DNA from: Escherichia coli | GTDB taxonomy: Bacteria; Pseudomonadota; Gammaproteobacteria; Enterobacterales; Enterobacteriaceae | Strand: one strand, 5' to 3' | Length of the DNA: 64,000 bases | Assembly (NCBI RefSeq): GCF_001677475.2 | Contig: NZ_CP015229.1 | Shown: one piece after another, positions 39,091-59,535 of the stretch | How positions within the stretch are numbered: the first letter of the stretch is position 1 | How the letters are laid out: each line of letters begins with the position of its first letter | The notes under the pieces: model-generated | What the model was told of the DNA's origin: nothing | Seen by the model: only the letters and a program-made list of their open reading frames with translations | The model's database searches: none | Program-made: the position numbers and the translations under genes

Positions 39091-40341
39091 ATGAATAAAC
39101 AATCCTGGCTGCTTAACCTCAGCCTGTTGAAAACGCACCCGGCGTTTCGCGCAGTATTCCTCGCTCGTTTTATCTCAATTGTGTCTCTGGGTTTGCTCGG
39201 CGTCGCGGTACCGGTGCAGATCCAGATGATGACGCATTCTACCTGGCAGGTGGGGCTTTCGGTGACGCTGACCGGCGGCGCGATGTTTGTTGGCCTGATG
39301 GTCGGCGGTGTGCTGGCGGATCGCTATGAGCGCAAAAAAGTGATTTTACTGGCGCGCGGCACCTGTGGCATTGGCTTCATTGGACTGTGCCTGAATGCGC
39401 TGCTGCCGGAGCCGTCATTGCTGGCAATCTATTCACTCGGTTTATGGGATGGTTTTTTCGCATCGCTTGGCGTTACGGCGCTACTGGCGGCGACACCTGC
39501 ACTGGTAGGGCGTGAAAACCTAATGCAGGCCGGGGCGATCACCATGTTGACCGTGCGTCTGGGATCGGTGATTTCGCCCATGATTGGCGGTTTACTGCTG
39601 GCGACTGGCGGCATAGCCTGGAACTACGGGCTGGCGGCGGCGGGCACGTTTATTACCTTGCTACCGTTGTTAAGCCTTCCGGCGTTGCCACCGCCACCGC
39701 AGCCGCGTGAGCATCCGTTGAAATCATTACTGGCAGGATTTCGTTTTCTGCTCGCCAGCCCGCTGGTAGGAGGGATTGCGCTGCTGGGTGGTTTATTGAC
39801 GATGGCGAGCGCGGTGCGGGTACTGTATCCGGCGCTGGCTGACAACTGGCAGATGTCGGCGGCACAGATTGGTTTTCTCTATGCGGCGATCCCGCTCGGT
39901 GCGGCTATTGGCGCGTTAACCAGCGGGAAGCTGGCACATAGCGCGCGACCAGGGTTATTGATGTTGCTCTCCACGCTGGGATCGTTCCTCGCCATTGGTC
40001 TGTTTGGCCTGATGCCGATGTGGATTTTAGGCGTGGTTTGTCTGGCGCTGTTCGGCTGGCTGAGCGCGGTTAGTTCGTTGCTGCAATATACAATGCTGCA
40101 AACGCAAACCCCGGAAGCGATGTTAGGGCGGATTAACGGTTTGTGGACGGCGCAAAATGTGACGGGAGATGCCATAGGCGCGGCGCTGCTGGGCGGTTTG
40201 GGAGCGATGATGACACCGGTTGCTTCCGCAAGCGCGAGCGGTTTTGGTTTGTTGATTATCGGCGTGTTGTTGTTGCTGGTGCTGGTGGAGTTGCGACGTT
40301 TTCGCCAGACGCCGCCGCAGGTGACAGCGTCCGACAGTTAG
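39091..40341 (+). CDS. entS: Enterobactin exporter (MFS) EntS
   Basis: 416-aa ORF, polytopic membrane protein. Confidence 0.95.
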
Positions 40342-40354
40342 CTAAAGGTGCATT

Positions 40355-40399
40355 TTCCCCTCACCCTAACCCTCTCCCCAAAGGGGCGAGGGGACTGTT
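40355..40399. repeat. GC-rich palindromic intergenic repeat, copy 1 (family name uncertain)
   Basis: ttcccctcaccctaaccctctccccaaaggggcgaggggactgtt; imperfect palindrome; near-identical element at 48749..48794. Confidence 0.6.
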
Positions 40400-40421
40400 A
40401 GTGCTCTAATTTTATGTTTTA

Positions 40422-41387
40422 TCAATCTTTTTTAAACAGTGAATTAAGTCTGTCCAGCACTTGCATGGCGCTGTAGTAATCCAGGCGGAACGTCTCGGTT
40501 CCCAGCGCATAAACCTGCTTGTTTTGTACTGCGGGCAGGTGTGCGAGCAGCGGATTAGCATAAATAGCATCGGCGTCTTTCTGATCACCGGCGAACAGGA
40601 ATAGTGACTCGCCATTTAACCCTGCAGCCAGATTTTCCCCACCAAGCTGAATGATGTCATGGCGTTTGCCCTGGCTTTGGCTGGCGTTTAAGCCTGCGGG
40701 CAACTTCGCCAGCGTAAAGCCGAGTTGTTCCAGCATCTGCCCTTGTGCTGATTCCGGCGTCCAGAGATTGGCACTGTGTGCAGCGGCAGTATAGACAATG
40801 GCAGTGATCGGCTGCGGCGGTAATTTGATTTGCTCTTTCGCCGCTGCCAGTTGCTTATCAAACTGTGCAATCCGCTTTGCCGCTTGTTTCTCATGCCCGG
40901 TAATTTCGCCAAGCTGCGTTAACAGCGACTGCCAGCTTTTGTCGTCGTAATTGATGATTAATGTCGGGGCGATGGTAGAGAGCTGATCATACAGCGCCAG
41001 CGCCGAATCACCGCCGGTTGCGCTAATTAAAATCAGATCCGGCATTTGCGCGGCAACGGCTTCTGCACTCGGTTCGCCGATATAGAGCCGTTGCAGTTTG
41101 CGTTCTGTCGCCACCTTGCTCCACTGGCGTAAAAAGCCCTGGTCATCCGCGACGCGGTTATTTGGCGTGGTCGCGCCGCTGGCGATCACCGGAGCATCAA
41201 TCGCCAGCAGTGAGCCGGTCAAGGTGACGCTGGTGGAAACAATACGCTGCGGCTGGCTTTCCAGGGTATGAGTGCCACGGCTGTCAGTAATCTGACGCGG
41301 CCAGTCGGCAGCCTGAACTACGGCTATTCCTGAAAGCAAAAGTCCTGTTAATAGAAGGGCGTTGCGGTAGAGCGAGGCGAGTCTCAC
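40422..41387 (-). CDS. fepB: Periplasmic ferric enterobactin-binding protein FepB
   Basis: 321-aa [29 protein letters not shown]... Confidence 0.95.
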
Positions 41388-41526
41388 AAATCAGCTTCCT
41401 GTTATTAATGAAGTTAATGCTTCTCATTTTCATTGTAACCACAACCAGATGCAACCCCGAGTTGCAGATTGCGTTACCTCAAGAGTTGACATAGTGCGCG
41501 TTTGCTTTTAGGTTAGCGACCGAAAA

Positions 41527-41547
41527 TATAAATGATAATCATTATTA
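41527..41547. promoter_or_regulatory. Fur box in fepB-entC divergent promoter
   Basis: ataaatgataatcattatt, close match to GATAATGATAATCATTATC. Confidence 0.65.
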
Positions 41548-41575
41548 AAGCCTTTATCATTTTGTGGAGGATGAT

Positions 41576-42751
41576 ATGGATACGTCACTGGCTGAGGAAG
41601 TACAGCAGACCATGGCAACACTTGCGCCCAATCGCTTTTTCTTTATGTCGCCGTACCGCAGTTTTACGACGTCAGGATGTTTCGCCCGCTTCGATGAACC
41701 GGCTGTGAACGGGGATTCGCCCGACAGTCCCTTTCAGCAAAAACTCGCCGCGCTGTTTGCCGATGCCAAAGCGCAGGGCATCAAAAATCCGGTGATGGTC
41801 GGGGCGATTCCCTTCGATCCACGTCAGCCTTCGTCGCTGTATATTCCTGAATCCTGGCAGTCGTTCTCCCGTCAGGAAAAACAAGCTTCCGCACGCCGCT
41901 TCACCCGCAGCCAGTCGCTGAACGTGGTGGAACGCCAGGCAATTCCGGAACAAACCACGTTTGAACAGATGGTTGCTCGCGCTGCCGCACTTACCGCCAC
42001 GCCGCAGGTCGACAAAGTGGTGTTGTCACGGTTGATTGATATCACCACTGACGCCGCCATTGATAGTGGCGTATTGCTGGAACGGTTGATTGCGCAAAAC
42101 CCGGTTAGTTACAACTTCCATGTCCCGCTGGCTGATGGTGGCGTCCTGCTGGGGGCCAGCCCGGAACTGCTGCTACGTAAAGACGGCGAGCGTTTTAGCT
42201 CCATTCCGTTAGCCGGTTCCGCGCGTCGTCAGCCGGATGAAGTGCTCGATCGCGAAGCGGGTAATCGTCTGCTGGCGTCAGAAAAAGATCGCCATGAACA
42301 TGAACTGGTGACTCAGGCGATGAAAGAGGTACTGCGCGAACGCAGTAGTGAGTTACACGTTCCCTCCTCTCCACAATTGATTACCACGCCGACGCTGTGG
42401 CATCTCGCAACTCCCTTTGAAGGTAAAGCGAATTCGCAAGAAAACGCACTGACTCTGGCCTGTCTGCTGCATCCGACCCCCGCGCTGAGCGGTTTCCCGC
42501 ATCAGGCCGCGACCCAGGTTATTGCTGAACTGGAGCCGTTCGACCGCGAACTGTTTGGAGGCATCGTGGGTTGGTGTGACAGCGAAGGTAACGGCGAATG
42601 GGTGGTGACCATCCGCTGCGCGAAGCTGCGGGAAAATCAGGTGCGTCTGTTTGCCGGAGCGGGGATTGTGCCTGCGTCGTCACCGTTGGGTGAGTGGCGC
42701 GAAACAGGCGTCAAACTTTCTACCATGTTGAACGTTTTTGGATTGCATTAA
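41576..42751 (+). CDS. entC: Isochorismate synthase EntC
   Basis: ATG at 41576 ([30 protein letters not shown]); 391 aa. Confidence 0.95.
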
Positions 42752-42760
42752 GGAGCGAGG

Positions 42761-44371
42761 ATGAGCATTCCATTCACCCGCTGGCCGGAAGAGTTTGCCC
42801 GTCGCTATCGGGAAAAAGGCTACTGGCAGGATTTGCCGCTGACCGACATTCTGACTCGCCACGCTGCGAGTGACAGCATCGCGGTTATCGACGGCGAGCG
42901 GCAGTTGAGTTATCGGGAGCTGAATCAGGCGGCGGATAACCTCGCGTGTAGTTTACGCCGTCAGGGCATTAAACCTGGTGAAACCGCGCTGGTACAATTG
43001 GGTAACGTCGCTGAACTTTACATTACCTTTTTCGCACTACTGAAACTGGGCGTTGCGCCGGTGCTGGCGCTGTTCAGCCATCAGCGTAGTGAACTGAACG
43101 CCTATGCCAGCCAGATTGAACCGGTGTTACTGATTGCCGATCGCCAACATGCGCTGTTTAGCGGAGATGATTTCCTTAATACTTTCGTCACAGAACATTC
43201 CTCCATTCGCGTGGTGCAACTGCTCAACGACGGCGGTGAGCATAACTTGCAGGATGCGATTAACCATCCGGCTGAGGATTTTACTGCCACGCCATCACCT
43301 GCTGATGAAGTGGCTTATTTCCAGCTTTCCGGCGGCACCACCGGCACACCGAAACTGATCCCGCGCACTCATAACGACTACTACTACAGCGTGCGTCGTA
43401 GCATCGAGATTTGTCAGTTCACACAACAGACACGCTACCTGTGTGCGATCCCGGCGGCTCATAACTATGCCATGAGTTCGCCAGGATCGCTGGGCGTCTT
43501 TCTTGCCGGAGGAACGGTTGTTCTGGCGGCCGATCCCAGCGCCACGCTTTGCTTCCCATTGATTGAAAAACATCAGGTGAACGTCACCGCGCTGGTGCCG
43601 CCAGCAGTCAGCCTGTGGTTGCAGGCACTGGCTGAAGGCGAAAGCCGAGCGCAGCTTGCCTCGCTGAAACTGTTACAGGTCGGTGGTGCACGTCTTTCTG
43701 CCACGCTTGCGGCGCGTATTCCCGCAGAGATTGGCTGCCAGTTACAGCAGGTGTTTGGCATGGCGGAAGGGCTGGTGAACTACACCCGTCTTGATGATAG
43801 CGCGGAGAAAATTATCCATACCCAGGGTTACCCAATGTGCCCGGACGATGAAGTGTGGGTTGCCGATACTGAAGGAAATCCACTGCCGCAAGGGGAAGTC
43901 GGACGCCTGATGACGCGCGGTCCGTACACCTTCCGTGGCTATTACAAAAGCCCGCAGCACAATGCCAGCGCCTTTGATGCCAACGGTTTTTACTGTTCCG
44001 GCGATCTGATCTCTATTGATCCCGACGGTTATATCACCGTGCAGGGGCGCGAGAAAGATCAGATCAACCGTGGCGGCGAGAAGATCGCAGCCGAAGAGAT
44101 CGAAAACCTGCTGCTGCGCCATCCGGCGGTGATCTACGCCGCACTGGTGAGCATGGAAGATGAGCTGATGGGCGAAAAAAGCTGTGCTTATCTGGTGGTA
44201 AAAGAGCCTCTACGCGCGGTGCAGGTGCGTCGTTTCTTGCGTGAACAGGGTATTGCCGAATTTAAATTACCGGATCGCGTGGAGTGTGTGGATTCACTTC
44301 CGCTGACGGCGGTCGGGAAAGTCGATAAAAAACAATTACGTCAGTGGCTGGCGTCACGCGCATCAGCCTGA
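42761..44371 (+). CDS. entE: 2,3-dihydroxybenzoate-AMP ligase EntE
   Basis: 536-aa ORF; adenylation-domain protein. Confidence 0.95.
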
Positions 44372-44384
44372 AGGAGAGAACACG

Positions 44385-45241
44385 ATGGCTATTCCAAAAT
44401 TACAGGCTTACGCACTGCCGGAGTCTCACGATATTCCGCAGAATAAAGTCGACTGGGCCTTTGAACCGCAACGTGCCGCGTTGTTAATCCATGATATGCA
44501 GGACTATTTTGTCAGCTTCTGGGGCGAGAACTGCCCGATGATGGAGCAGGTGATCGCGAATATTGCGGCACTACGCGACTACTGCAAACAGCACAATATC
44601 CCGGTTTATTACACCGCCCAGCCGAAAGAGCAGAGCGATGAAGATCGGGCGCTGTTGAATGATATGTGGGGACCGGGCCTGACCCGTTCGCCGGAACAGC
44701 AAAAGGTGGTGGATCGCCTGACGCCAGATGCCGACGACACGGTGCTGGTGAAGTGGCGCTACAGCGCGTTTCATCGTTCTCCGCTGGAGCAAATGCTCAA
44801 AGAGAGTGGACGTAACCAGCTGATTATTACCGGGGTATATGCCCACATTGGCTGTATGACCACCGCAACCGACGCATTTATGCGCGATATTAAACCGTTT
44901 ATGGTGGCGGATGCGCTGGCCGATTTCAGCCGTGACGAGCATTTGATGTCGCTGAAATATGTGGCTGGACGTTCTGGCCGGGTGGTGATGACCGAAGAAT
45001 TACTGCCAGCACCTATCCCCGCCAGCAAAGCGGCGCTGCGTGAGGTTATCCTGCCGTTGCTGGACGAGTCCGATGAACCGTTCGATGATGACAACCTGAT
45101 CGACTACGGTTTGGATTCGGTGCGCATGATGGCGCTGGCGGCGCGCTGGCGCAAAGTACATGGCGATATCGACTTTGTCATGCTGGCGAAAACCCCAACC
45201 ATTGATGCCTGGTGGAAACTGCTCTCCCGCGAGGTGAAATA

Positions 45242-45242
<1 letters not shown>
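44385..45242 (+). CDS. entB: Isochorismatase / aryl carrier protein EntB
   Basis: 285-aa ORF; stop overlaps entA start (TAATG). Confidence 0.95.
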
Positions 45243-46404
<1,162 letters not shown>

Positions 46405-46584
46405 GCCCGACAGAATTAAATGAGATTGCAGGAAAACTCGGTTAACGGAGTGATCGAGTTAACATTGTTAAGTTAAATATTGGTTTCAACTCCGATTTAC
46501 ATGGTTGCTGTGTTGTTAAATTGTACAAAGATGTTATAGAAACAAAATGTAACATCTCTATGGACACGCACACGGATAACAACT

Positions 46585-48690
46585 ATGAACAAATCAGGGA
46601 AATACCTCGTCTGGACAGTGCTCTCTGTAATGGGAGCATTTGCTCTGGGATACATTGCTTTAAATCGTGGGGAACAGATCAACGCGCTGTGGATTGTGGT
46701 GGCGTCGGTCTGTATCTATCTGATCGCTTATCGTTTTTATGGTCTGTATATCGCCAAAAATGTGCTGGCGGTTGACCCGACGCGTATGACGCCAGCGGTG
46801 CGCCATAACGACGGGCTGGATTATGTGCCGACGGACAAGAAAGTGCTGTTCGGTCACCATTTTGCGGCCATTGCCGGAGCTGGTCCGTTGGTGGGGCCGG
46901 TGCTGGCAGCGCAAATGGGCTACCTGCCGGGGATGATCTGGCTGCTTGCTGGGGTGGTTCTCGCCGGTGCGGTACAGGATTTCATGGTGCTGTTTGTTTC
47001 CACGCGCCGTGACGGTCGCTCGCTGGGTGAGCTGGTCAAAGAAGAGATGGGGCCAACCGCCGGGGTGATTGCGCTGGTTGCCTGCTTTATGATCATGGTC
47101 ATCATCCTTGCCGTGCTGGCGATGATCGTGGTGAAAGCCCTGACCCATAGCCCGTGGGGAACGTATACCGTTGCGTTCACCATTCCGCTGGCGCTGTTCA
47201 TGGGGATCTACCTGCGCTATCTGCGTCCAGGGCGTATTGGCGAAGTGTCGGTCATTGGCCTGGTGTTCCTGATTTTCGCCATTATCTCTGGCGGCTGGGT
47301 GGCAGAAAGTCCGACCTGGGCACCGTACTTTGACTTTACCGGCGTGCAGCTGACCTGGATGCTGGTGGGTTACGGCTTCGTGGCGGCGGTGCTGCCGGTG
47401 TGGTTGCTGCTGGCCCCGCGTGACTACCTCTCAACCTTCCTGAAAATCGGGACTATTGTCGGTCTGGCGGTAGGCATTCTGATTATGCGCCCGACGCTGA
47501 CCATGCCTGCTCTGACCAAATTTGTTGATGGCACTGGCCCGGTATGGACCGGTAACCTGTTCCCGTTCCTGTTTATTACTATCGCCTGTGGCGCGGTGTC
47601 TGGCTTCCATGCGCTGATCTCTTCTGGCACCACGCCGAAGATGCTGGCGAACGAAGGGCAGGCGTGCTTTATCGGCTACGGTGGGATGTTAATGGAATCC
47701 TTCGTGGCGATTATGGCGCTGGTTTCCGCCTGTATCATCGATCCGGGCGTTTACTTCGCAATGAACAGCCCAATGGCGGTGCTGGCTCCGGCAGGGACGG
47801 CGGATGTGGTTGCTTCTGCCGCGCAGGTGGTGAGTAGCTGGGGCTTTGCGATTACCCCGGATACGCTAAACCAGATTGCCAGCGAAGTGGGTGAACAGTC
47901 GATCATTTCCCGTGCGGGCGGTGCGCCGACCCTGGCGGTGGGGATGGCCTACATTCTGCACGGTGCGCTGGGCGGCATGATGGATGTGGCGTTCTGGTAT
48001 CACTTCGCCATTCTGTTTGAAGCACTGTTTATTCTGACGGCGGTGGATGCAGGTACGCGTGCTGCGCGCTTTATGTTGCAGGATCTGCTGGGCGTGGTGT
48101 CTCCGGGCCTGAAACGGACAGATTCTCTGCCTGCTAACCTGCTGGCAACGGCGCTGTGTGTGCTGGCGTGGGGCTACTTCCTGCATCAGGGCGTGGTCGA
48201 TCCGCTGGGCGGTATTAACACCCTGTGGCCGCTGTTTGGTATTGCCAACCAGATGCTGGCAGGGATGGCGCTGATGCTCTGTGCCGTAGTGCTGTTCAAG
48301 ATGAAACGTCAACGTTACGCCTGGGTGGCGCTGGTGCCAACGGCCTGGCTGCTGATTTGTACCCTGACCGCAGGCTGGCAGAAAGCGTTCAGCCCGGATG
48401 CGAAAGTGGGCTTCCTGGCCATTGCTAATAAGTTCCAGGCAATGATCGACAGCGGTAATATTCCGTCGCAGTATACTGAGTCACAACTGGCGCAACTGGT
48501 GTTCAACAACCGTCTGGATGCCGGGTTGACCATCTTCTTTATGGTGGTTGTGGTGGTTCTGGCGCTGTTCTCGATTAAGACGGCACTGGCGGCATTGAAA
48601 GAGCCGAAGCCAACGGCGAAAGAAACGCCGTATGAGCCAATGCCGGAAAATGTCGAGGAGATCGTGGCGCAGGCGAAAGGCGCGCACTAA
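46585..48690 (+). CDS. cstA: Carbon starvation protein A (peptide/pyruvate transporter)
   Basis: 701-aa polytopic membrane ORF. Confidence 0.95.
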   Translation: MNKSGKYLVWTVLSVMGAFALGYIALNRGEQINALWIVVASVCIYLIAYRFYGLYIAKNVLAVDPTRMTPAVRHNDGLDYVPTDKKVLFGHHFAAIAGAGPLVGPVLAAQMGYLPGMIWLLAGVVLAGAVQDFMVLFVSTRRDGRSLGELVKEEMGPTAGVIALVACFMIMVIILAVLAMIVVKALTHSPWGTYTVAFTIPLALFMGIYLRYLRPGRIGEVSVIGLVFLIFAIISGGWVAESPTWAPYFDFTGVQLTWMLVGYGFVAAVLPVWLLLAPRDYLSTFLKIGTIVGLAVGILIMRPTLTMPALTKFVDGTGPVWTGNLFPFLFITIACGAVSGFHALISSGTTPKMLANEGQACFIGYGGMLMESFVAIMALVSACIIDPGVYFAMNSPMAVLAPAGTADVVASAAQVVSSWGFAITPDTLNQIASEVGEQSIISRAGGAPTLAVGMAYILHGALGGMMDVAFWYHFAILFEALFILTAVDAGTRAARFMLQDLLGVVSPGLKRTDSLPANLLATALCVLAWGYFLHQGVVDPLGGINTLWPLFGIANQMLAGMALMLCAVVLFKMKRQRYAWVALVPTAWLLICTLTAGWQKAFSPDAKVGFLAIANKFQAMIDSGNIPSQYTESQLAQLVFNNRLDAGLTIFFMVVVVVLALFSIKTALAALKEPKPTAKETPYEPMPENVEEIVAQAKGAH

Positions 48691-48748
48691 AGTCAGAGTG
48701 AGGGGGGAATGTTGGCGAATGTTGGCGAAAGTTGGCATGGTGCCGAGG

Positions 48749-48794
48749 GTTCCCCCTCACCCTAACCCTCTCCCCGGTGGGGTGAGGGGACTGA
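48749..48794. repeat. GC-rich palindromic intergenic repeat, copy 2
   Basis: gttccccctcaccctaaccctctccccggtggggtgaggggactga; near-identical to 40355..40399; preceded by three 10-mer direct repeats (gaatgttggc) at 48718..48747. Confidence 0.6.
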
Positions 48795-48853
48795 CCGAGC
48801 GCGTTGATAGCTATTAATGCACTCTCTCAGCAATCTGATTACCGGAGGTATTG

Positions 48854-49051
48854 ATGTTTGATTCACTGGCAAAAGCCGGAAAATATTTAGGTCAGGCGGC
48901 GAAGCTGATGATTGGTATGCCTGATTACGACAACTATGTCGAACATATGCGGGTTAACCATCCCGATCAAACGCCGATGACCTACGAAGAGTTTTTCCGT
49001 GAGCGGCAGGACGCGCGCTACGGTGGAAAAGGTGGCGCGCGCTGCTGCTAA
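48854..49051 (+). CDS. ybdD: Small protein YbdD (DUF466)
   Basis: 65 aa [33 protein letters not shown]...; downstream of cstA. Confidence 0.85.
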
Positions 49052-49060
49052 ATTTGTACG

Positions 49061-50149
49061 TCAGGCTTTAAACGATTCCACTTTTTCGAACGCTGCACGC
49101 AACGTATCTGGTGTCAGCGTGACTGGCAGGTAATGAATGGACTCCACCGGACGTAAGGTGTGGGCAATCACTTTGTCGATCTCCGCCTGATTATTGATAT
49201 CCACTTCCAGCTCCGCCAGCGTAGTCGGCAGATGAAAACGTTGATACGCCCCGGTTAATTGCGCCAGCACATCATCCTGACCCAGCAAGGCGCTTTGCAC
49301 CAGAATGCCGTAGGCGACTTTGGTGCCGTGGAGAAACTTCTCGGTTTGCGGCAAAACGGTCAGACCGTTATGCACGGCATGGGCCGCCGCCACACGCGTA
49401 AAACGATCGCCCAGACCACCGACCATCCCACCACCAGCAATAATAGCATCCACCACATCGCAAAATGATTGCGTTAACTGTTGTTTTTGCTGATCGCTCA
49501 GCGCCTGTTCGCTACTGTTTAACAAGACGTCGCGAATGGCCTGCGCATTATTGATCCCCAGACGCACGGTTAGCGGCAAGGTTTCTGGTTGCGGAGCCAG
49601 CACCACCGCTTCATACCATTTCGCCAGCGTGTCACCGATCCCCGCCAGCAGATATTCTTGCGGCGCATTGAGGATAATCTCTGGCTCCACCAGCACCATA
49701 AAATTGGCGTCGTCGAAAATCTCATAATGCAGCGCCTGTCCGGCATCGTTATACCAGACGGAGAGCGGTGTCCAGGCGGCGCAGGTGGCGGCGATCGTCG
49801 GAACGGCAACAAACGGCAGACCGAGACGGCGGGCGAGGGCTTTCGCGGTGTCGAGCAGTGCGCCGCCGCCGACGCCAATCACCACGCTGCGATCGTCACC
49901 GGACTCAGCCGCCAGGTGCTGTACATCGCTTTCGCTGCAATGACCGCGAAACAAAATATGCTTTGCACCAGGCAGTTGAAACGCTGGTGGAAGTCTGATT
50001 TGCGCCGCAGCAATGGCGCGTTCGCCGTAGATCCACACCGCGCGAGAAAGCTGTTCATCAGTGAAAAAGTCGTGCAGGTGATTGAAACTTCCTGGATGTG
50101 AAAAGTAGTTAGCCGGGCCGACGACGACGCGGATAGGATTGTGAGGCAT
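49061..50149 (-). CDS. ybdH: Iron-containing (glycerol dehydrogenase-like) alcohol dehydrogenase family protein YbdH
   Basis: 362-aa ORF. Confidence 0.85.
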   Translation of the reverse strand: MPHNPIRVVVGPANYFSHPGSFNHLHDFFTDEQLSRAVWIYGERAIAAAQIRLPPAFQLPGAKHILFRGHCSESDVQHLAAESGDDRSVVIGVGGGALLDTAKALARRLGLPFVAVPTIAATCAAWTPLSVWYNDAGQALHYEIFDDANFMVLVEPEIILNAPQEYLLAGIGDTLAKWYEAVVLAPQPETLPLTVRLGINNAQAIRDVLLNSSEQALSDQQKQQLTQSFCDVVDAIIAGGGMVGGLGDRFTRVAAAHAVHNGLTVLPQTEKFLHGTKVAYGILVQSALLGQDDVLAQLTGAYQRFHLPTTLAELEVDINNQAEIDKVIAHTLRPVESIHYLPVTLTPDTLRAAFEKVESFKA

Positions 50150-50257
50150 GTTGTGTTGTCCTTATTGTTTTATTTAGACATCTAAACGTCTTGATTGCCA
50201 AATACTAGCATCGTGTTATAGTGCCTTCAACACGCAACTTCGTCAGGCACAATAAAA

Positions 50258-51418
50258 ATGACAAATAACCCTCTGATTCCACAAAGCAAACTTCCACAAC
50301 TTGGCACTACCATTTTCACCCAGATGAGCGCGCTGGCGCAGCAACACCAGGCGATTAACCTGTCGCAAGGCTTTCCTGATTTTGATGGTCCGCGCTATTT
50401 ACAGGAGCGGCTGGCGTACCACGTTGCCCAGGGGGCAAACCAATACGCGCCCATGACCGGCGTGCAGGCCTTGCGCGAGGCGATTGCTCAGAAAACGGAA
50501 CGTTTGTATGGCTATCAACCAGATGCCGATAGCGATATCACCGTAACGGCAGGGGCGACGGAAGCGTTATATGCAGCGATTACCGCATTGGTGCGCAATG
50601 GTGATGAAGTGATCTGCTTTGATCCCAGCTATGACAGTTACGCGCCCGCCATCGCGCTTTCGGGGGGAATAGTGAAACGTATTGCACTGCAACCACCGCA
50701 TTTTCGCGTGGACTGGCAGGAATTTGCCGCATTGTTAAGCGAGCGCACCCGACTGGTGATCCTCAACACCCCGCATAACCCCAGTGCAACTGTCTGGCAG
50801 CAGGCTGATTTCGCCGCTTTGTGGCAGGCAATTGCCGGGCACGAGATTTTTGTCATTAGCGATGAAGTTTACGAGCACATCAACTTTTCACAACAGGGCC
50901 ATGCCAGCGTGCTGTCGCATCCGCAGCTGCGTGAGCGGGCGGTGGCAGTTTCTTCATTTGGCAAGACTTATCATATGACCGGCTGGAAAGTGGGTTATTG
51001 CGTTGCGCCAGCGCCCATCAGTGCCGAAATTCGCAAGGTACATCAGTATCTGACCTTTTCGGTAAATACCCCGGCGCAACTGGCGCTTGCCGATATGCTA
51101 CGTGCAGAACCTGAGCATTATCTTGCGTTACCGGACTTTTATCGCCAGAAACGCGATATTCTGGTGAATGCCTTAAGTGAGAGTCGGCTGGAGATTTTAC
51201 CGTGCGAAGGTACATACTTTTTGCTGGTGGATTACAGCGCCGTGTCTACGCTGGATGACGTTGAGTTTTGCCAGTGGCTGACGCGGGAGCACGGTGTAGC
51301 GGCGATTCCGCTGTCGGTGTTTTGCGCCGATCCCTTCCCCCATAAACTGATTCGTCTCTGTTTTGCCAAGAAGGAATCGACGTTGCTGGCAGCAGCTGAA
51401 CGCCTGCGCCAGCTGTAG
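50258..51418 (+). CDS. ybdL: PLP-dependent methionine aminotransferase YbdL
   Basis: 386-aa ORF; class I aminotransferase. Confidence 0.9.
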   Translation: MTNNPLIPQSKLPQLGTTIFTQMSALAQQHQAINLSQGFPDFDGPRYLQERLAYHVAQGANQYAPMTGVQALREAIAQKTERLYGYQPDADSDITVTAGATEALYAAITALVRNGDEVICFDPSYDSYAPAIALSGGIVKRIALQPPHFRVDWQEFAALLSERTRLVILNTPHNPSATVWQQADFAALWQAIAGHEIFVISDEVYEHINFSQQGHASVLSHPQLRERAVAVSSFGKTYHMTGWKVGYCVAPAPISAEIRKVHQYLTFSVNTPAQLALADMLRAEPEHYLALPDFYRQKRDILVNALSESRLEILPCEGTYFLLVDYSAVSTLDDVEFCQWLTREHGVAAIPLSVFCADPFPHKLIRLCFAKKESTLLAAAERLRQL

Positions 51419-52048
51419 TTATTTAACCGTCCAGGCGCGGGAAAATTGACGGTCGGCAAACAGTTCTTGCAGGCCGTTAATTTGCTTCAGGCGCAGCACT
51501 TCGTCGCTGTCCATTCCCAGCTCTTTGCCGATTTTATGATCGTCCCATCCCAACTGGCTGAGTTCACGAACAATTTCGGACATGGCAGTGATTTGGTGGC
51601 GACCACGAGCGCGGTTATGACGAATAGTCGCGGCGATGCGTTGATTACGCGTACCTTCCAGACAGGTCACCGGCAAATAACCTTTTAAGCGTAATTTTAA
51701 CGATGATGAGCCTTTACCAATTTCATGGCGGTGAAAACCATCCACGATTTCCAGGGCATTTTTATCCGTATGCGTGACCACAATGGGTTGGGTAAAACCA
51801 TCTATTTCAATGGATTTTTTCAGCAGTTTTTTTTCGGGTGGTGCCACGTTGTTTGGGTTGTAATCATTAGGCATAAGTTGGCTGTTTTTAACCCACAGAA
51901 CGCAATCCACTGGCTCTTCTCGAAAGGGGCTAACCTGATGGATCGCCATGCGGATTTCATTAATCGCTTTGATGCGATCGTCTTCCGGCAAGCTGGCGAG
52001 AAATTGGGTTAAATCCTGCGTTAATCGTTGTTGCATAGTATCCCCCAT
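51419..52048 (-). CDS. ybdM: ParB/sulfiredoxin-like domain protein YbdM (IbrB-like)
   Basis: 209-aa ORF with DGFHRH motif (IVDGFHRHEIG); overlaps ybdN by 28 nt. Confidence 0.85.
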   Translation of the reverse strand: MGDTMQQRLTQDLTQFLASLPEDDRIKAINEIRMAIHQVSPFREEPVDCVLWVKNSQLMPNDYNPNNVAPPEKKLLKKSIEIDGFTQPIVVTHTDKNALEIVDGFHRHEIGKGSSSLKLRLKGYLPVTCLEGTRNQRIAATIRHNRARGRHQITAMSEIVRELSQLGWDDHKIGKELGMDSDEVLRLKQINGLQELFADRQFSRAWTVK

Positions 52049-53241
52049 TCCTGACGTTTTCCTTTTATTCGTTCGTTATAACGCTGATAGTTCTTCGCTT
52101 TGGTCGGGCTAAATGATAATGCCCGACACCAGTAATCGTTATTGAGTAAAACTTTGCATATTCGCCGCCAGGAGGGGATATCTTTCGCGCCAATGTCCCC
52201 TTGCTGGGTTTGTGGAACCTCGATGCCTTTTTTCTGATACCAGTGCAAATAAATGGCGATTTTATTGCGATAATGCTCAGCTGTTTTCTCCGGCATGCTG
52301 TTGAGTAGCAATAATGCATACTCCTGCCAGTCTAAATGTTCGGGCTTGAGGATTTTCCGATGACCATAAAAATGGTTGTCATGTCCGGCGTAAATGCCGC
52401 CACTTTTTACCCCGCTGACTCGTGCGCACATAGCAGCCCAGCGATCCGGTTCGATAACGTGATAGAGCCATAATCCTTGCCGTTGTTCCGGACCAAAAGG
52501 TTCGCAAATTCGCATATGACGCAGAGGAACGCCTGCCTGATACATTAGGTTATACAGTGGGTTGCAGAGACTTTGATGATTTGCATACCAGGTCCAGATA
52601 TCAGCCACTTTCCAGTCGTAGATGGGGTAAATGTACCAACTATGACCGCCTGGTGCGGCAGTAGTCCAGGGCTTATCATCGGCAAAACGTTGTTTATTTA
52701 AACTGGCGATGGCGACAAAACGGTTGTAGGACTCATCCGCACGGATGCCGATCATCATCGCCGCCGGACGTTTTTGCGAAAACCATTCGGCAAACTCACG
52801 CACAAATTGTTCGAAGGTCATGCCAGGCTGGTAAAAGGAGAAAAAGTCAGGATCGGTTATCGCATCTTGCGGGGGCTGACGTACCCATTCGACATCAGGT
52901 TCCCAGCACTGCCATTCGGGTTGGTATTGTGATAGGGAATTTTGCGTTGTAAGCGGGAGCGCAACCCAGTAAAACTCTTCGATGACATCGGTGTACAACT
53001 CGCGCAGAGACTGAACATAGTTAATGGTGCAAGAGAACTGAGCTTCCCAGTCGATAAATAAAACACAAATTTTTTTGCCCATTTGTCGGGCAAGTTCGGC
53101 GGTCAGATGCAGCATTAATCCGGAATCTTTACCACCCGAAAAAGAAACGCAGACGCGGGGTAGGGTGTTAAGTGTCCAGGTAATACGTTCTTTTGCAGCT
53201 TCCAGAATATTCAGTGGAAGCGGGATTTTATAAATAGACAT
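52021..53241 (-). CDS. ybdN: PAPS reductase-like PP-loop ATPase family protein YbdN (IbrA-like)
   Basis: 406-aa ORF with PP-loop motif SFSGGKDSG near N-terminus. Confidence 0.85.
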   Translation of the reverse strand: MSIYKIPLPLNILEAAKERITWTLNTLPRVCVSFSGGKDSGLMLHLTAELARQMGKKICVLFIDWEAQFSCTINYVQSLRELYTDVIEEFYWVALPLTTQNSLSQYQPEWQCWEPDVEWVRQPPQDAITDPDFFSFYQPGMTFEQFVREFAEWFSQKRPAAMMIGIRADESYNRFVAIASLNKQRFADDKPWTTAAPGGHSWYIYPIYDWKVADIWTWYANHQSLCNPLYNLMYQAGVPLRHMRICEPFGPEQRQGLWLYHVIEPDRWAAMCARVSGVKSGGIYAGHDNHFYGHRKILKPEHLDWQEYALLLLNSMPEKTAEHYRNKIAIYLHWYQKKGIEVPQTQQGDIGAKDIPSWRRICKVLLNNDYWCRALSFSPTKAKNYQRYNERIKGKRQEWGILCNND

Positions 53242-53387
53242 CTGAAAACGCTCTCTGAACGTTACGGGGTGATCAGTGAGATAAGACTGTTAATTATAAA
53301 GTAAACACTGTAAAGCAGAGTGTTTTATTTTTCATTCGCGCCGTGAATAAATAGATGAAAGTTATAGTAGCTGTCTGAAGTTATATA

Positions 53388-54290
53388 TCAAAAACTCTCA
53401 TTTAGGCGGTCAATAAATCGGGAGAACACCAGGTTATTTAAAGAAGATTTATTATAGGAAATGTAAAGCTTTATTGAAGGTAACGGATGCTCTAGTTTTA
53501 TCTCTTTTAAATTAAGAAAGTCACGGTGGGAGTTATAAAGTTCATAGGGAACTATTCCCAGTAAATCTGTAACTGCAATGCTATTAATGATTGTCAGCAA
53601 AGAGGAACCACGAAATGAAATTTTGCGATTCATAAACTTCTCATCTATTTCCATTTGAATATCATCAACCCCTGCTGATTTGGATATTAATTGGGTGAAC
53701 TCTTCTGCCATAATTTGCTCATAAGTGCTATTGTCAGTAATTCGCGGATGCTTATTACTACAAATTAGAGTATTGCGAATTGTATGCAATGGCATGCAAA
53801 TAACGGAACGGCTGATTACTGGCATTTGGGTGATCACCAGATCGGCTTTGCGGTGAACCAACAGTTCTTCAGCATTCTCTGCTGACATGAGGATATCATG
53901 GCACTCAATCTCGACAGAGGCATCTTGTCGTAGGCAGCGGATCAGCATACTATTATTAGAGCAAGAAATGAGCTGAGGGCCGTAGATAATAAAATTTTTC
54001 TTTAGTTCGGACTTATTGACTATATTAATTGTTTGTTCAAGGTCTCTGAGATTTTTCTCAAGATGGTGATGCAGATTTAACCCTGTCGTCGTCGGCGCGA
54101 TACCTTTTCCTGAGCGAATGAATAAAGGGTCATTAAATTGCGCACGTAAGCGTTGTAACGACTGGCTCACGGCTGATGGGGTGATATATAGTGATTCAGC
54201 AGCCTTGCTAATGCTTAAATGCTGATAAATACACTCAAATATGACAAGAAGATTTAAGTCGAACTTTTTCAAGTCGTAGAGATTGGCCAT
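53388..54290 (-). CDS. ybdO: LysR-family transcriptional regulator YbdO
   Basis: 300-aa ORF with N-terminal HTH (ISKAAESLYITPSAVSQSLQRLR). Confidence 0.85.
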   Translation of the reverse strand: MANLYDLKKFDLNLLVIFECIYQHLSISKAAESLYITPSAVSQSLQRLRAQFNDPLFIRSGKGIAPTTTGLNLHHHLEKNLRDLEQTINIVNKSELKKNFIIYGPQLISCSNNSMLIRCLRQDASVEIECHDILMSAENAEELLVHRKADLVITQMPVISRSVICMPLHTIRNTLICSNKHPRITDNSTYEQIMAEEFTQLISKSAGVDDIQMEIDEKFMNRKISFRGSSLLTIINSIAVTDLLGIVPYELYNSHRDFLNLKEIKLEHPLPSIKLYISYNKSSLNNLVFSRFIDRLNESF

Positions 54291-54499
54291 ACACTACTCC
54301 GGTTATATTTTTCTTCCATGGTATATTCACTTAATCAATGTTTTTTTGCGTATATATTTTTATTGATTATATTTTTTTGCTTAACTCAGGATTAAGTTTT
54401 TCTAAAATAGCACAGCCACTTAGGGCAGAGCGAGCAATTCATGCTTTTTTAGGATGGTTGAAAAGCAGGGATGTATTTCAACCATCCATGAATTATCTT

Positions 54500-55246
54500 T
54501 TATTTATTCCCCATAATGATATTAAGCGTTTTCTGATCGGGCAACCCCACGGCCTGTTGCAGCGTATTTTCCTTACTCATGTAATAGATAGCTGGTGTGA
54601 CATTTGCCCCCAGATCGTCCATGAGTTTTTCGTTGTCGCTTAACACTTTCATTTGCTCTGTACTTACGTTTGCAGGCACGTTTAGCTTAAGCTTGCCACC
54701 AGAGGATTCATATTCTTGCCAGGTTTTTGCGGGATCTTTGGAGGCAAGAATTGCCGCTGCTGTAGCCGGGCTTTCTGGCTTGATAACCCCAACCAACAAT
54801 GTTCTTAATTGCACTTTGCCAGAATCTACCCACGGGCGCGCCTGCTGCCAGAACTGTTTACAATATGGGCAGAACGGATCGGCGAAGACGTAGACAATGA
54901 CCGGCGCATCTTTTTTACCGTCGAGGAGCCAGTGGGATTGTTCCATCCGTTGCCACATTTCGCGTCCGGCTGGTGCGTAAATTTCTTTTTCGATAAGTGT
55001 GTTACTCAGGTTTTCACCTTTCTCGTTGTACATGTAACCGGATATGGCGTGCTTACCATCTGGAGTCAGGTAGATGGTGACGCCCATATCCTGATACTTT
55101 CCGAGATAACCTTTCATTCCTCCGGGGGCATCGAACGTTTTGATGATTGTAATGCCCTGTTTTTCAATCGCTTTTACTGGGGCAGGAAGTTCCTCTGCGA
55201 AGGCGATTGCTGGAAGCAGAGCCAGTAAAAGTATCTTTTTTAACAT
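54500..55246 (-). CDS. dsbG: Periplasmic thiol:disulfide oxidoreductase DsbG
   Basis: Start trimmed to [17 protein letters not shown] (cat at 55244..55246); CPYC active site; 248 aa. Confidence 0.95.
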
Positions 55247-55617
55247 TAATTTGTCCTTTTCAGTCAGTGCAAAAGTCGAGTAAAAGGCATAACCTATCAC
55301 TGTCATAGGTAAGAGCTTAGATCAGGTGATTGCCCTTTGTTTATGAGGGTGTTGTAATCCATGTCGTTGTTGCATTTGTAAGGGCAACACCTCAGCCTGC
55401 AGGCAGGCGCTGAAGATACCAAAGGGTAGTTCAGATTACACGGTCACCTGGAAAGGGGGCCATTTTACTTTTTATCGCCGCTGGCGGTGCAAAGTTCACA
55501 AAGTTGTCTTACGAAGGTTGTAAGGTAAAACTTATCGATTTGATAATGGAAACGCATTAGCCGAATCGGCAAAAATTGGTTACCTTACATCTCATCGAAA
55601 ACACGGAGGAAGTATAG

Positions 55618-56181
55618 ATGTCCTTGATTAACACCAAAATTAAACCTTTTAAAAACCAGGCATTCAAAAACGGCGAATTCATCGAAATCACCGAAAAAGA
55701 TACCGAAGGCCGCTGGAGCGTCTTCTTCTTCTACCCGGCTGACTTTACTTTCGTATGCCCGACCGAACTGGGTGACGTTGCTGACCACTACGAAGAACTG
55801 CAGAAACTGGGCGTAGACGTATACGCAGTATCTACCGATACTCACTTCACCCACAAAGCATGGCACAGCAGCTCTGAAACCATCGCTAAAATCAAATATG
55901 CGATGATCGGCGACCCGACTGGCGCCCTGACCCGTAACTTCGACAACATGCGTGAAGATGAAGGTCTGGCTGACCGTGCGACCTTCGTTGTTGACCCGCA
56001 GGGTATCATCCAGGCAATCGAAGTTACCGCTGAAGGCATTGGCCGTGACGCGTCTGACCTGCTGCGTAAAATCAAAGCAGCACAGTACGTAGCTTCTCAC
56101 CCAGGTGAAGTTTGCCCGGCTAAATGGAAAGAAGGTGAAGCAACTCTGGCTCCGTCTCTGGACCTGGTTGGTAAAATCTAA
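55618..56181 (+). CDS. ahpC: Alkyl hydroperoxide reductase peroxiredoxin subunit AhpC
   Basis: 187-aa [26 protein letters not shown]...; peroxidatic Cys motif FTFVCPTE. Confidence 0.97.
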
Positions 56182-56425
56182 ATTTCCTTCGTCTTTCACG
56201 CCATAGCGGCGTTGGCGTCGCCCGCTCACCCCGGTCACTTACTTGTGTAAGCTTCCGGGGATTCACAGGCTAGCCGCCTTGCTCTGGCGTGAAATACTTC
56301 GGAAATTCACCTAATTCTTCGGGTGCTGCGGCACCCGATTTTCTTCCCCGCATCATGATGCAAGCTGCATCCAGGTAGCCGCAGAGGCCGCTTGCATGAT
56401 GATGTTTAAAGCCCAGGAGATAAAC

Positions 56426-57991
56426 ATGCTCGACACAAATATGAAAACTCAACTCAAGGCTTACCTTGAGAAATTGACCAAGCCTGTTGAGTTAATTGCC
56501 ACGCTGGATGACAGCGCTAAATCGGCAGAAATCAAGGAACTGTTGGCTGAAATCGCAGAACTGTCAGACAAAGTCACCTTTAAAGAAGATAACAGCTTGC
56601 CGGTGCGTAAGCCGTCTTTCCTGATCACCAACCCAGGTTCCAACCAGGGGCCACGTTTTGCAGGCTCCCCGCTGGGCCACGAGTTCACCTCGCTAGTACT
56701 GGCGTTGCTGTGGACCGGTGGTCATCCGTCGAAAGAAGCGCAGTCTCTGCTGGAGCAGATTCGCCATATTGACGGTGATTTTGAATTCGAAACCTATTAC
56801 TCGCTCTCTTGCCACAACTGCCCGGACGTGGTGCAGGCGCTGAACCTGATGAGCGTACTGAACCCGCGCATCAAGCACACTGCAATTGACGGCGGCACCT
56901 TCCAGAACGAAATCACTGATCGCAACGTGATGGGCGTTCCGGCAGTGTTCGTAAACGGGAAAGAGTTTGGTCAGGGCCGCATGACGTTGACTGAAATCGT
57001 TGCCAAAATTGATACTGGCGCGGAAAAACGTGCGGCAGAAGAGCTGAACAAGCGTGATGCTTATGACGTATTAATCGTTGGTTCCGGCCCGGCGGGTGCA
57101 GCGGCAGCGATTTACTCCGCACGTAAAGGCATCCGTACCGGCCTGATGGGCGAACGTTTCGGTGGTCAGATCCTCGATACCGTTGATATCGAAAACTACA
57201 TTTCTGTACCGAAGACCGAAGGGCAGAAACTGGCAGGTGCGCTGAAAGTTCACGTTGATGAATACGACGTTGATGTGATCGACAGCCAGAGCGCCAGCAA
57301 ACTGATCCCGGCAGCGGTTGAAGGTGGTCTGCATCAGATTGAAACAGCTTCTGGCGCGGTACTGAAAGCACGCAGCATTGTCGTGGCGACCGGTGCAAAA
57401 TGGCGCAACATGAACGTTCCGGGCGAAGATCAGTATCGCACCAAAGGCGTGACCTACTGCCCGCACTGCGACGGCCCGCTGTTTAAAGGCAAACGCGTAG
57501 CGGTTATCGGCGGCGGTAACTCCGGCGTGGAAGCAGCAATCGACCTGGCGGGTATCGTTGAGCACGTAACTCTGCTGGAATTTGCGCCAGAAATGAAAGC
57601 CGACCAGGTTCTGCAGGACAAACTGCGCAGCCTGAAAAACGTCGACATTATTCTGAATGCGCAAACCACGGAAGTGAAAGGCGACGGCAGCAAAGTCGTT
57701 GGTCTGGAATATCGAGATCGTGTCAGCGGCGATATTCACAACATCGAACTGGCCGGTATTTTCGTCCAGATTGGTCTGCTGCCGAACACCAACTGGCTGG
57801 AAGGCGCAGTCGAACGTAACCGCATGGGCGAGATTATCATTGATGCGAAATGCGAAACCAACGTCAAAGGCGTGTTCGCAGCGGGTGACTGTACAACGGT
57901 TCCGTACAAGCAGATCATCATCGCCACTGGCGAAGGTGCCAAAGCCTCTCTGAGTGCTTTTGACTACCTGATTCGCACCAAAACAGCATAA
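56426..57991 (+). CDS. ahpF: Alkyl hydroperoxide reductase flavoprotein subunit AhpF
   Basis: ATG at 56426 ([17 protein letters not shown]); 521 aa; CHNC and CPHC redox motifs. Confidence 0.97.
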
Positions 57992-58020
57992 GAAGAAGTA
58001 AGATTCACCTGCAATTGCTT

Positions 58021-58052
58021 AGCCGCCGGGGTCAAACCTGGCGGCTTTTTTA
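58021..58052 (+). terminator. Rho-independent terminator after ahpF
   Basis: Stem agccgcc / ggcggct followed by tttttt; a second GC-rich hairpin follows that may terminate convergent uspG. Confidence 0.55.
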
Positions 58053-58112
58053 TTGCAATAAAAAGCCCCGCCGGGATGGCTCCGGGCAGGGCGGGATAAA
58101 TACTTTTATCTA

Positions 58113-58541
58113 TTAGCGAACGACCAGCACCGGCAGATTGGCGTGGCGGATAACGCTGGAGGCGTTAGAACCTAACAGATGGGTCGAAATCGATGGGTTG
58201 CGCGAACCGATAACGACAACATCAGCCCCCAGTTCTTCTGCCAACTCATTGACTTCATCCCGCACGCTACCAAAACGGACATGTTGTTTAATGCGGGAAG
58301 GATCGATGGTGAAGTGGCTGACCATCGTTTGCAGACGTTCTTCTGCTTCATGTTGCAGATGCTCTTCAAAACGACGCACATCAGCGGCAAAACGGTGCAG
58401 GCTCAGGCTGGCTGACCCCGGTAGTACGTGAAGTAGATGAATAACTCCGTCATCCTGGGCGAGGAATTCAGCGTGGCGAACAGCTTTGTCGCTCAATTCC
58501 ATTTCGAAAACATCCACTGGCATGATGATTGTTTTGTACAT
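58113..58541 (-). CDS. uspG: Universal stress protein G
   Basis: Start trimmed to [21 protein letters not shown] (cat at 58539..58541); 142 aa. Confidence 0.9.
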
Positions 58542-58896
58542 AAGCATTCTCTCCTTGTTTTTGCATGTATACATAACAGCACATTATTGGTTATGAATCT
58601 ATAATTTGCGAGGCTGATTTGATCTGAATTTGCTATTGAGCTGGAAAATAAATAAAACCAGGCGCTACCAGCGTTGTTCAAGGTATAGCACTGCAGCAAC
58701 AATAATTGCTGCTATGAATATATAAAATGCAGTGATACCGAGAGCTTCGCTCATATGAGGTTCCGCAGATGAATAACCAGTTCAGATTAGAATGCTGCGC
58801 TTAAGAGCAAAATGATAAATCTGGTTGATATTTGAGCGGAAAGAGGATGCGAGTGCATCCTCTGGGCAAAGCGAGTTATCGCTTGTGCAGATGGGA

Positions 58897-59307
58897 TTAA
58901 AGCAGGTAGTCGCCAGCAGCTTCTGGCTGGTATTCGAGTTCCAGCACTTCAAGGTGGGTTGCAACGCCGCCCGGAAGTTCCCAGTGAATGGAATCGCCAA
59001 CGCGCAGTCCCAGCAGTGCGGCACCTACCGGAGCCATAACGGAAAGCTGAGTATTGCTATCGGTCATTTTTGCCGGATACACCAGCGTGCGCACACGCAC
59101 TTCGCCATCGCTAAGATTGCGGAATTTAACCCGGCTGTTCATTGTCACCACGTCGTGTGGCATCTGTTCTGGCGAACACATTTGGGCGCGATCCAACTCT
59201 GCGTTTAACGCGTCGGCGATTGGCAAACCAGCATAGGCGGGTTGCTCCAGCAGAATATCGATGCGTTCGGCATCCAGGTCGTTAATGATGATAGTTGGTC
59301 TGGACAT
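58897..59307 (-). CDS. rnk: Regulator of nucleoside diphosphate kinase (GreA/GreB-like) Rnk
   Basis: Start trimmed to [22 protein letters not shown] (cat at 59305..59307); 136 aa. Confidence 0.9.
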
Positions 59308-59535
59308 TTTTACTCCATGTCGTCGGTACTGCGAGTGTCGCAGTAAACATACCCAAAAGAAAACCCTCACCGTCAGGCGGCGAGGGTTTAACTCACATGA
59401 TGATACTGACTGTTGCTCACTCTTTGAAGTGATTTGCGTCACATTCAGGGAATTCCTCAATGCAGCGCATTATGTATAATTCTTAATCGTCACGGTTTAT
59501 GGAAGACGAATTAGCGTGTTTTGTAAATCAGATGA

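Follow-up and report, generated by a model that had tools for sequence, protein, structure and literature searches.

A two-allele polymorphism with and without ybdR at the uspG–rnk locus of Escherichia coli

The uspG–rnk interval in the window and in K-12

The locus of interest lies within a 64,000-nucleotide stretch of Escherichia coli DNA (assembly GCF_001677475.2, contig NZ_CP015229.1), hereafter the window. Two minus-strand genes border it: (i) uspG (58113..58541), encoding the 142-aa universal stress protein UspG, and (ii) rnk (58897..59307), encoding a 136-aa nucleoside diphosphate kinase regulator. Identification of uspG is based on the list of open reading frames (ORFs), on RefSeq annotation in matching genomes, and on a full-length match to the NCBIfam equivalog NF012000 (312 bits, cutoff 189; aligned 1–142 of 142). 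That of rnk is based on its ORF and a full-length match to equivalog NF004396 (201 bits, cutoff 109), and the window protein is 99% identical to Rnk of the WP_000089731.1 type. The uspG start codon (ATG) occupies 58541..58539 and the rnk stop codon (TAA) 58899..58897, both on the minus strand, and hence the genes are separated by a spacer of 355 bp (58542..58896). The initial annotation had given this same spacer, and ORF coordinates together with NCBIfam identities bear it out exactly.

The spacer had also been described as free of any sizeable ORF. This stands for the long ORFs (55–127 codons) that overlap the spacer, which are out-of-frame overlaps of uspG or rnk, but a real gene of 29 codons was overlooked: yldA (58665..58754, minus strand), encoding the 29-aa small membrane protein YldA (MSEALGITAFYIFIAAIIVAAVLYLEQRW). 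Identification of yldA is based on its ORF, on RefSeq annotation, and on a match to the NCBIfam equivalog NF041476 (59 bits, cutoff 45; aligned 1–29 of 29, E = 3.2e-16); K-12 YldA also exceeds the cutoff of this model (57.9 bits). The gene starts 142 bp past the rnk stop codon, on the same strand, and its product consists of one hydrophobic helix with a conserved C-terminal AVLYLE motif. Read along the minus strand, the order in the window is rnk, two rnk 3' hairpins, the yldA upstream region, yldA, a 123-bp spacer and uspG. A seemingly empty spacer may, in other words, hide a genuine 29-codon gene.

No YbdR-like sequence was found in the spacer or in the whole 64-kb window by tblastn with K-12 YbdR (best E = 1.0, over 61 aa), and the same search recovered no ybdR remnant in the spacer. 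The absence of a ybdR-like gene reported by the initial annotation is thus correct, as is its statement that K-12 carries a ybdR of roughly 412 aa between uspG and rnk: the annotated MG1655 record (L001) has the order uspG (minus strand), ybdR (plus), yldA (minus), rnk (minus), with yldA beside ybdR. In L001 coordinates, uspG lies at 1444–1872, ybdR (1239 bp, 412 aa, annotated as a "zinc-dependent alcohol dehydrogenase") at 2093–3331, yldA at 3335–3424 and rnk at 3562–3972. Hereafter, the ybdR-less arrangement of the window is called the short allele and that of K-12 the long allele.

The K-12 locus (b0607–b0610 region) and the window have in common the flanking genes, the rnk 3' hairpins, the uspG ribosome-binding site, and a gene for a 29-aa YldA directly downstream of rnk. 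The long allele differs in that ybdR is convergent with yldA, with 3 bp between them, and in that uspG and ybdR diverge from a 220-bp promoter region. Breakpoints defined by blastn against K-12 delimit an allele-specific segment of 276 bp in the window (58560..58835): on the uspG side, homology extends to 18 nt upstream of the ATG, at 58559, and it resumes at 58836, 61 nt past the rnk stop codon and just ahead of the rnk 3' hairpins, a region that is 99.1% identical to K-12. In K-12, the place of the 276-bp segment is taken by 1,611 bp comprising the uspG–ybdR intergenic region, ybdR, yldA and the yldA upstream region.

Comparison of the two versions of the segment revealed little resemblance outside the yldA gene itself. 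The noncoding parts upstream of uspG and of yldA align with their K-12 counterparts no better than shuffled sequence does (z = 1.5 and -0.2, respectively; the shared ribosome-binding site and hairpins were taken out before the test), and window yldA shares 58% protein identity and 55% DNA identity with K-12 yldA. A search of the window and K-12 for boundary repeats, insertion sequences (IS), REP sequences or other mobile-element marks returned only chance-level 10–20-mers. The combination of unalignable noncoding DNA, yldA identity of only 55%, and a lack of remnants and repeats argues for allele replacement rather than tidy excision; on the evidence of the alignments, the short and long alleles are related by replacement with unalignable sequence, and not by a clean excision of ybdR. 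Excision mediated by a mobile element or by repeats was considered as a cause of the length difference and rejected, since no repeats, IS or REP sequences lie at the segment boundaries.

K-12 does contain an imperfect 16-nt direct repeat (CACTGAACACCAGGAA at L001 1987–2002 and CAGTGAGAACCAGGAA at L001 3471–3486; 81% identity) that flanks ybdR and yldA. This repeat is probably a product of chance, and recombination between its two copies would leave rnk and uspG without yldA, unlike the arrangement in the window.

The short-allele yldA evolves as a coding sequence. Among eight Escherichia short-allele sequences, the gene has 10 variable sites, all of which are third codon positions; nine of the changes are synonymous and the tenth is a conservative I-to-M replacement, a pattern that points to purifying selection. 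All short-allele genomes that we opened, including CFT073, carry the RefSeq annotation "small membrane protein YldA" (WP_001287361.1); the accession is listed for CFT073, DETEC-P666 and FDAARGOS_1288, and YldA of strain WP4-S18-ESBL-07 is 100% identical to that of the window. For the K-12 allele, and for that allele only, YldA has been detected as a chromosomally tagged protein (VanOrsdel et al. 2018, PMC6001520). The window protein is thus a non-K-12 member of the YldA family, whose position after rnk recurs in ~35 of the sampled enterobacterial species. The YoaI model (NF041475) is also matched by both YldA alleles, though below threshold (30 and 22.5 bits, cutoff 45), and hence these two tiny membrane proteins may be distant paralogues.

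Frequencies of the two alleles in E. coli

A set of 5,426 complete E. coli genomes was searched to determine the distribution of the two alleles. The whole 1.4-kb uspG–yldA–rnk stretch is present, unbroken, in 1,820 of these, while the 276-bp window-type segment is found in 1,817 (in 1,565 of them at no less than 99% identity). Both ybdR and the K-12-type yldA segment are found in 3,605 genomes, in each case at 3,616 places, two of which are on plasmids. The short-allele and long-allele genomes (1,817 and 3,605, respectively) add up to 5,422, the full number of genomes in which the locus was matched at all. In E. coli, the uspG–rnk locus is therefore a clean two-allele polymorphism, with shares of 33.5% (short) and 66.4% (long).

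Genomes with the short allele include CFT073, JJ1886 and ABU 83972, and those with the long allele include K-12, O157, O104:H4, E24377A, a B-strain derivative and also B1 strains. In CFT073 (NZ_CP051263.1), JJ1886 and WP4-S18-ESBL-07, the whole 1.4 kb is collinear with the window and has the same uspG–yldA–rnk order. Loci of this type are 96.6–99.1% identical to the window overall, and the allele-specific 276 bp are 99.3–100% identical in most genomes. Over this stretch, such loci differ from the window by point differences only. These are massed in the ahpF–uspG intergenic region and the 3' half of uspG, where the divergence from CFT073 is 7.5–11.5%.

The identical counts of ybdR and K-12-type yldA indicate that ybdR travels with the long allele. 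By the same counts, ybdR is never apart from K-12-type yldA, which argues against a close ybdR copy elsewhere in short-allele genomes. For the strain from which the window derives, of which 64 kb of DNA was inspected, the case that ybdR is not carried elsewhere is made by these population counts alone.

These frequencies bear on the suggestion, made from the window by itself, of a strain-specific presence/absence polymorphism. The polymorphism is real, but it is not specific to the strain, with the short allele occurring in a third of E. coli genomes as well as in three other Escherichia (see below). The gene order of K-12 is not, at this site, the norm for the species. The 355-bp interval is very probably an intact short allele of a two-allele uspG/rnk locus and not a lesion particular to this strain.

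Judged mostly by title and abstract, none of the papers that mention ybdR deals with a presence/absence polymorphism of the gene. As a matter of gene content, the polymorphism is ordinary and already annotated in RefSeq genomes.

The interval in other species and the origin of the alleles

Eighty loci from ~80 enterobacterial species were compared with the window. Non-coli Escherichia are represented among them by three genomes, and the set excludes E. fergusonii, S. enterica subsp. enterica, and other Escherichia or cryptic-clade type strains. A collinear short allele of 359–362 bp is present in E. albertii, in Escherichia sp. MOD1-EC7003, and in SCPM-O-B-8794. The last of these is labelled "E. 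coli" but, at only 92.9% identity to the window, probably belongs to another Escherichia species. Identities to the window in the allele-specific segment and in the flanks are, respectively, 86.0% and 89.4% for E. albertii, 91.7% and 93.9% for MOD1-EC7003, and 93.5% and 92.9% for SCPM-O-B-8794. Segment identity thus roughly tracks flank identity, as though the short allele had been vertically inherited within Escherichia.

Outside Escherichia, other Enterobacteriaceae (Salmonella, Citrobacter, Enterobacter and Kluyvera, among others) have the same conserved flanks as the window, ahpF–uspG on one side and rnk–rna on the other. The content of the interval varies: all four combinations of ybdR presence or absence with yldA presence or absence are seen across the ~80 species, and presence of either gene is patchy within Citrobacter, Enterobacter and Lelliottia. 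The Salmonella subspecies sampled carry ybdR without yldA, the reverse of the window, and both genes are missing from the C. freundii group, Kluyvera and most Kosakonia. In the other enterobacterial species sampled, the interval more often lacks ybdR than has it; uspG–rnk without ybdR, the configuration that the initial annotation had asked about as possibly the common one, is hence common among those species and a minority state in E. coli. Our own reading is that ybdR and yldA may be old residents of the interval that have been lost repeatedly.

Two arrangements seen in this comparison deserve mention. In Salmonella enterica subsp. arizonae and diarizonae, ybdR begins ~90 bp after rnk, leaving no room for yldA. 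In the Citrobacter freundii group (L006–L010), uspG directly follows rnk, ahpF is ~4.4 kb further off than usual and rna is 1.2–2.6 kb from rnk, distances that indicate extra genes inserted on both sides.

The two yldA lineages of E. coli have different relatives. Window yldA and its upstream region are 72–73% identical to four ybdR-less Citrobacter loci (L012, L013, L018 and L024), and bootstrapped neighbour-joining (NJ) trees built from yldA coding sequences place the short-allele genes of Escherichia with four Citrobacter alleles at 86% support; window-type yldA grouped with K-12 yldA in 0 of 500 trees. The nearest relatives of K-12 yldA are other Citrobacter alleles (63–70% identity), with support of 44% for the K-type clade; nucleotide identity of the K-12 type to C. 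koseri, C. amalonaticus AUH and HRGM66 is 68–70%. K-12 ybdR is 81% identical to that of Salmonella and 80% to that of C. sedlakii, as compared with 81.6% for rnk and 79% for uspG. As ybdR is about as distant as its neighbours, there is no sign of a recent, identifiable donor.

On these comparisons, the two E. coli alleles would have split at or before the divergence of Escherichia and Citrobacter, or else one of them would have been imported from another lineage, an age estimate that rests on a 29-codon gene and short noncoding stretches. The apparent depth of the alleles could be inflated if, after a deletion, so small a transmembrane peptide had evolved rapidly. The alleles may have been swapped among lineages through homologous recombination in the conserved flanks.

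Several explanations of the missing ybdR can be weighed against a standing two-allele polymorphism. An assembly artefact, in which a collapsed or mis-joined contig dropped the gene, has a negligible probability, given that the same 1.4-kb stretch is unbroken in 1,820 complete genomes from independent projects. We give hardly any chance to a recent deletion private to this strain or clone. Such a deletion would fit the presence of ybdR at this site in K-12 and two thirds of complete genomes, and the divergence of the neighbouring 18 kb from all complete genomes (97.0% identity at best) makes a private event conceivable; against it, the same junction recurs at a minimum of 99% identity in 1,565 genomes (1,817 matching) and in the three other Escherichia, and this strain has no clonal relationship with CFT073, JJ1886 or E. 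albertii. Moreover, the window retains no ybdR remnant and no boundary repeats, and the replacing sequence is unlike what excision from a K-12-type locus would leave. Relocation of ybdR within the genome, as opposed to its loss, is also very improbable: the inspectable part of this genome is limited to 64 kb, in which there is no YbdR homologue (best E = 1), but across the species the genome and place counts of ybdR equal those of K-12-type yldA.

How E. coli came to carry both alleles is a separate matter. One possibility, which we regard as open to doubt, is that the short allele is the native one of Escherichia, with the long allele imported into E. coli from a different enterobacterial lineage by homologous recombination; alternatively, a common ancestor had both, and they have persisted side by side since. 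Import is favoured by the short allele in three of three non-coli Escherichia genomes, with divergence that roughly tracks the flanks, by breakpoints that fall exactly at the edges of conserved sequence, and by the closeness of K-type yldA to Citrobacter alleles (68–70%). However, none of the sampled genera is closer to K-12 in ybdR than in the vertically inherited rnk and uspG; the values look vertical and point to no donor; K-12 uspG nests within Escherichia; and the diversity of ybdR within E. coli (98.1–100% identity) is that of a long-resident gene.

Differences between the alleles extend to ybdR content, all cis-regulatory DNA of uspG and yldA, and 45% of yldA bases, and each yldA lineage goes with different Citrobacter species. 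We tentatively raise the idea of a long-lived dimorphism, with a rather modest chance of being right: it could be either a trans-species polymorphism under selection or the outcome of repeated allele replacement between genera via the flanks, and the wiring of uspG could be the selected difference. Should the age implied by the yldA comparison be right, the locus would represent a small case of ancient allelic dimorphism in enterobacterial core-genome neighbourhoods; their apparent antiquity is perhaps a minor curiosity.

Regulatory sequences and neighbouring divergence

The 60 nt upstream of the uspG start (58542..58601, minus strand), which include the ribosome-binding site AAGGAGAG, are conserved: among the eight Escherichia short-allele sequences, 6.3% of columns are variable, versus 48% in the distal, fast-evolving part of the yldA–uspG spacer (58602..58664, minus strand). 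Only the last ~18 nt of this block (58542..58559) can be aligned with K-12. The block probably carries the uspG promoter and 5' UTR, and the allele-specific yldA upstream region (58755..58835, minus strand), which cannot be aligned to its K-12 equivalent, presumably holds the yldA promoter and ribosome-binding site. A consensus scan called no sigma-70 site between uspG and rnk, and so we infer these promoter positions. The scan also called no canonical terminator between the two genes. In particular, none was called after yldA (58602..58664), where the predicted fold has weak local pairing only.

Two hairpins lie 3' of rnk on the minus strand. The first, a 9-bp GC-rich hairpin (AGAGGATGC-ACUC-GCAUCCUCU; 58842..58863), is predicted by both the minimum free energy (MFE) and centroid folds and is common to both alleles; its stem is invariant, while its loop varies, in the three other Escherichia genomes. 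It has a short U-tract and drew no terminator call from the scan; a role as the rnk terminator, or as a 3'-end stabiliser, is probable from the modelled structure. The second, smaller hairpin (AAGCGA-UAAC-UCGCUU; 58869..58884) is predicted just past the rnk stop codon and is also present in K-12. No Rfam family exceeds its threshold within the spacer, a snoZ223 match of 27 bits being sub-threshold noise. Outside the polymorphism, the rnk leader RNA element (Rfam RF01771, "Enterobacteria rnk leader") lies at 59352..59460 on the minus strand as a full-length match (124.9 bits versus a gathering score of 50, E = 1.3e-24), and a terminator-like hairpin (59389..59361) is situated directly upstream of rnk, within this leader.

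The uspG-upstream block shares only 18 nt with K-12, and uspG would hence be driven by different cis-regulatory DNA in the short and long alleles. As no convincing terminator follows yldA, yldA and uspG may be co-transcribed in the short allele. In K-12, ybdR–yldA has been listed as a convergent excludon (PMC12288877); this convergent overlap would be lost in the short allele, which would also lack YbdR, an uncharacterized Zn-dependent dehydrogenase. The best NCBIfam match of YbdR is to glutathione-independent formaldehyde dehydrogenase, at 195 bits and far under the cutoff of 637. The absence of ybdR as such matters little: the gene encodes an accessory, uncharacterized dehydrogenase, and that B2-type and other E. 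coli lack it can already be seen from thousands of annotated genomes. Of more practical weight is that the DNA upstream of uspG is wholly different between alleles, so that regulatory results obtained for uspG or yldA in K-12 may not transfer to CFT073 or ST131.

The neighbourhood of the locus displays further variation. Within-species divergence is unusually high in a patch comprising the 3' half of uspG and the ahpF–uspG intergenic region (57926..58325), which is 7.5–11.5% diverged from CFT073 and 8% from DETEC-P666; divergence is 0–1.5% beside the patch, in the 5' half of uspG and in the yldA segment. Across E. coli, uspG divergence reaches 7.5%, most of it synonymous, given that the UspG protein is 97–99% conserved within Escherichia. 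E. coli is not monophyletic in the uspG tree: Escherichia sp. MOD1 clusters with CFT073 and DETEC-P666, and the K-12 and window set takes in "E. coli" SCPM. These patterns suggest that 57926..58325 is a mosaic segment, either old or introgressed, with no connection to the ybdR dimorphism. Hitch-hiking of the uspG divergence with that dimorphism was rejected because the divergent patch lies at the far 3' end of uspG, and the part nearest the polymorphism is 0–1.5% diverged.

Further from the locus, an 18-kb stretch from fepB through ahpF (40000..58100) has a best identity of 97.0% among the 5,426 complete E. coli genomes. In 500-bp bins, identity ranges from 87.7% to 100%, with the lowest bin near 48500, at about the cstA–ybdD boundary by coordinate mapping onto L087. 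On the other side, from rnk to citT, identity to K-12 and WP4-S18 is 98.4–98.6%. From these values, it seems that the source strain belongs to a poorly sampled lineage, or that 40000..58100 is mosaic.

The ahpC–ahpF spacer (56202..56281) is likewise variable, measuring 244 bp in the window and WP4-S18-ESBL-07, and 170 bp in CFT073, DETEC-P666, FDAARGOS_1288 and VREC0864. The extra ~75 bp form an imperfect palindrome, and match what we take to be the ERIC primer sequences: the reverse complement of ERIC2 with one mismatch in 22, and ERIC1R with three in 22. The insert looks like a short ERIC/IRU element, present in some strains as an insertion polymorphism.
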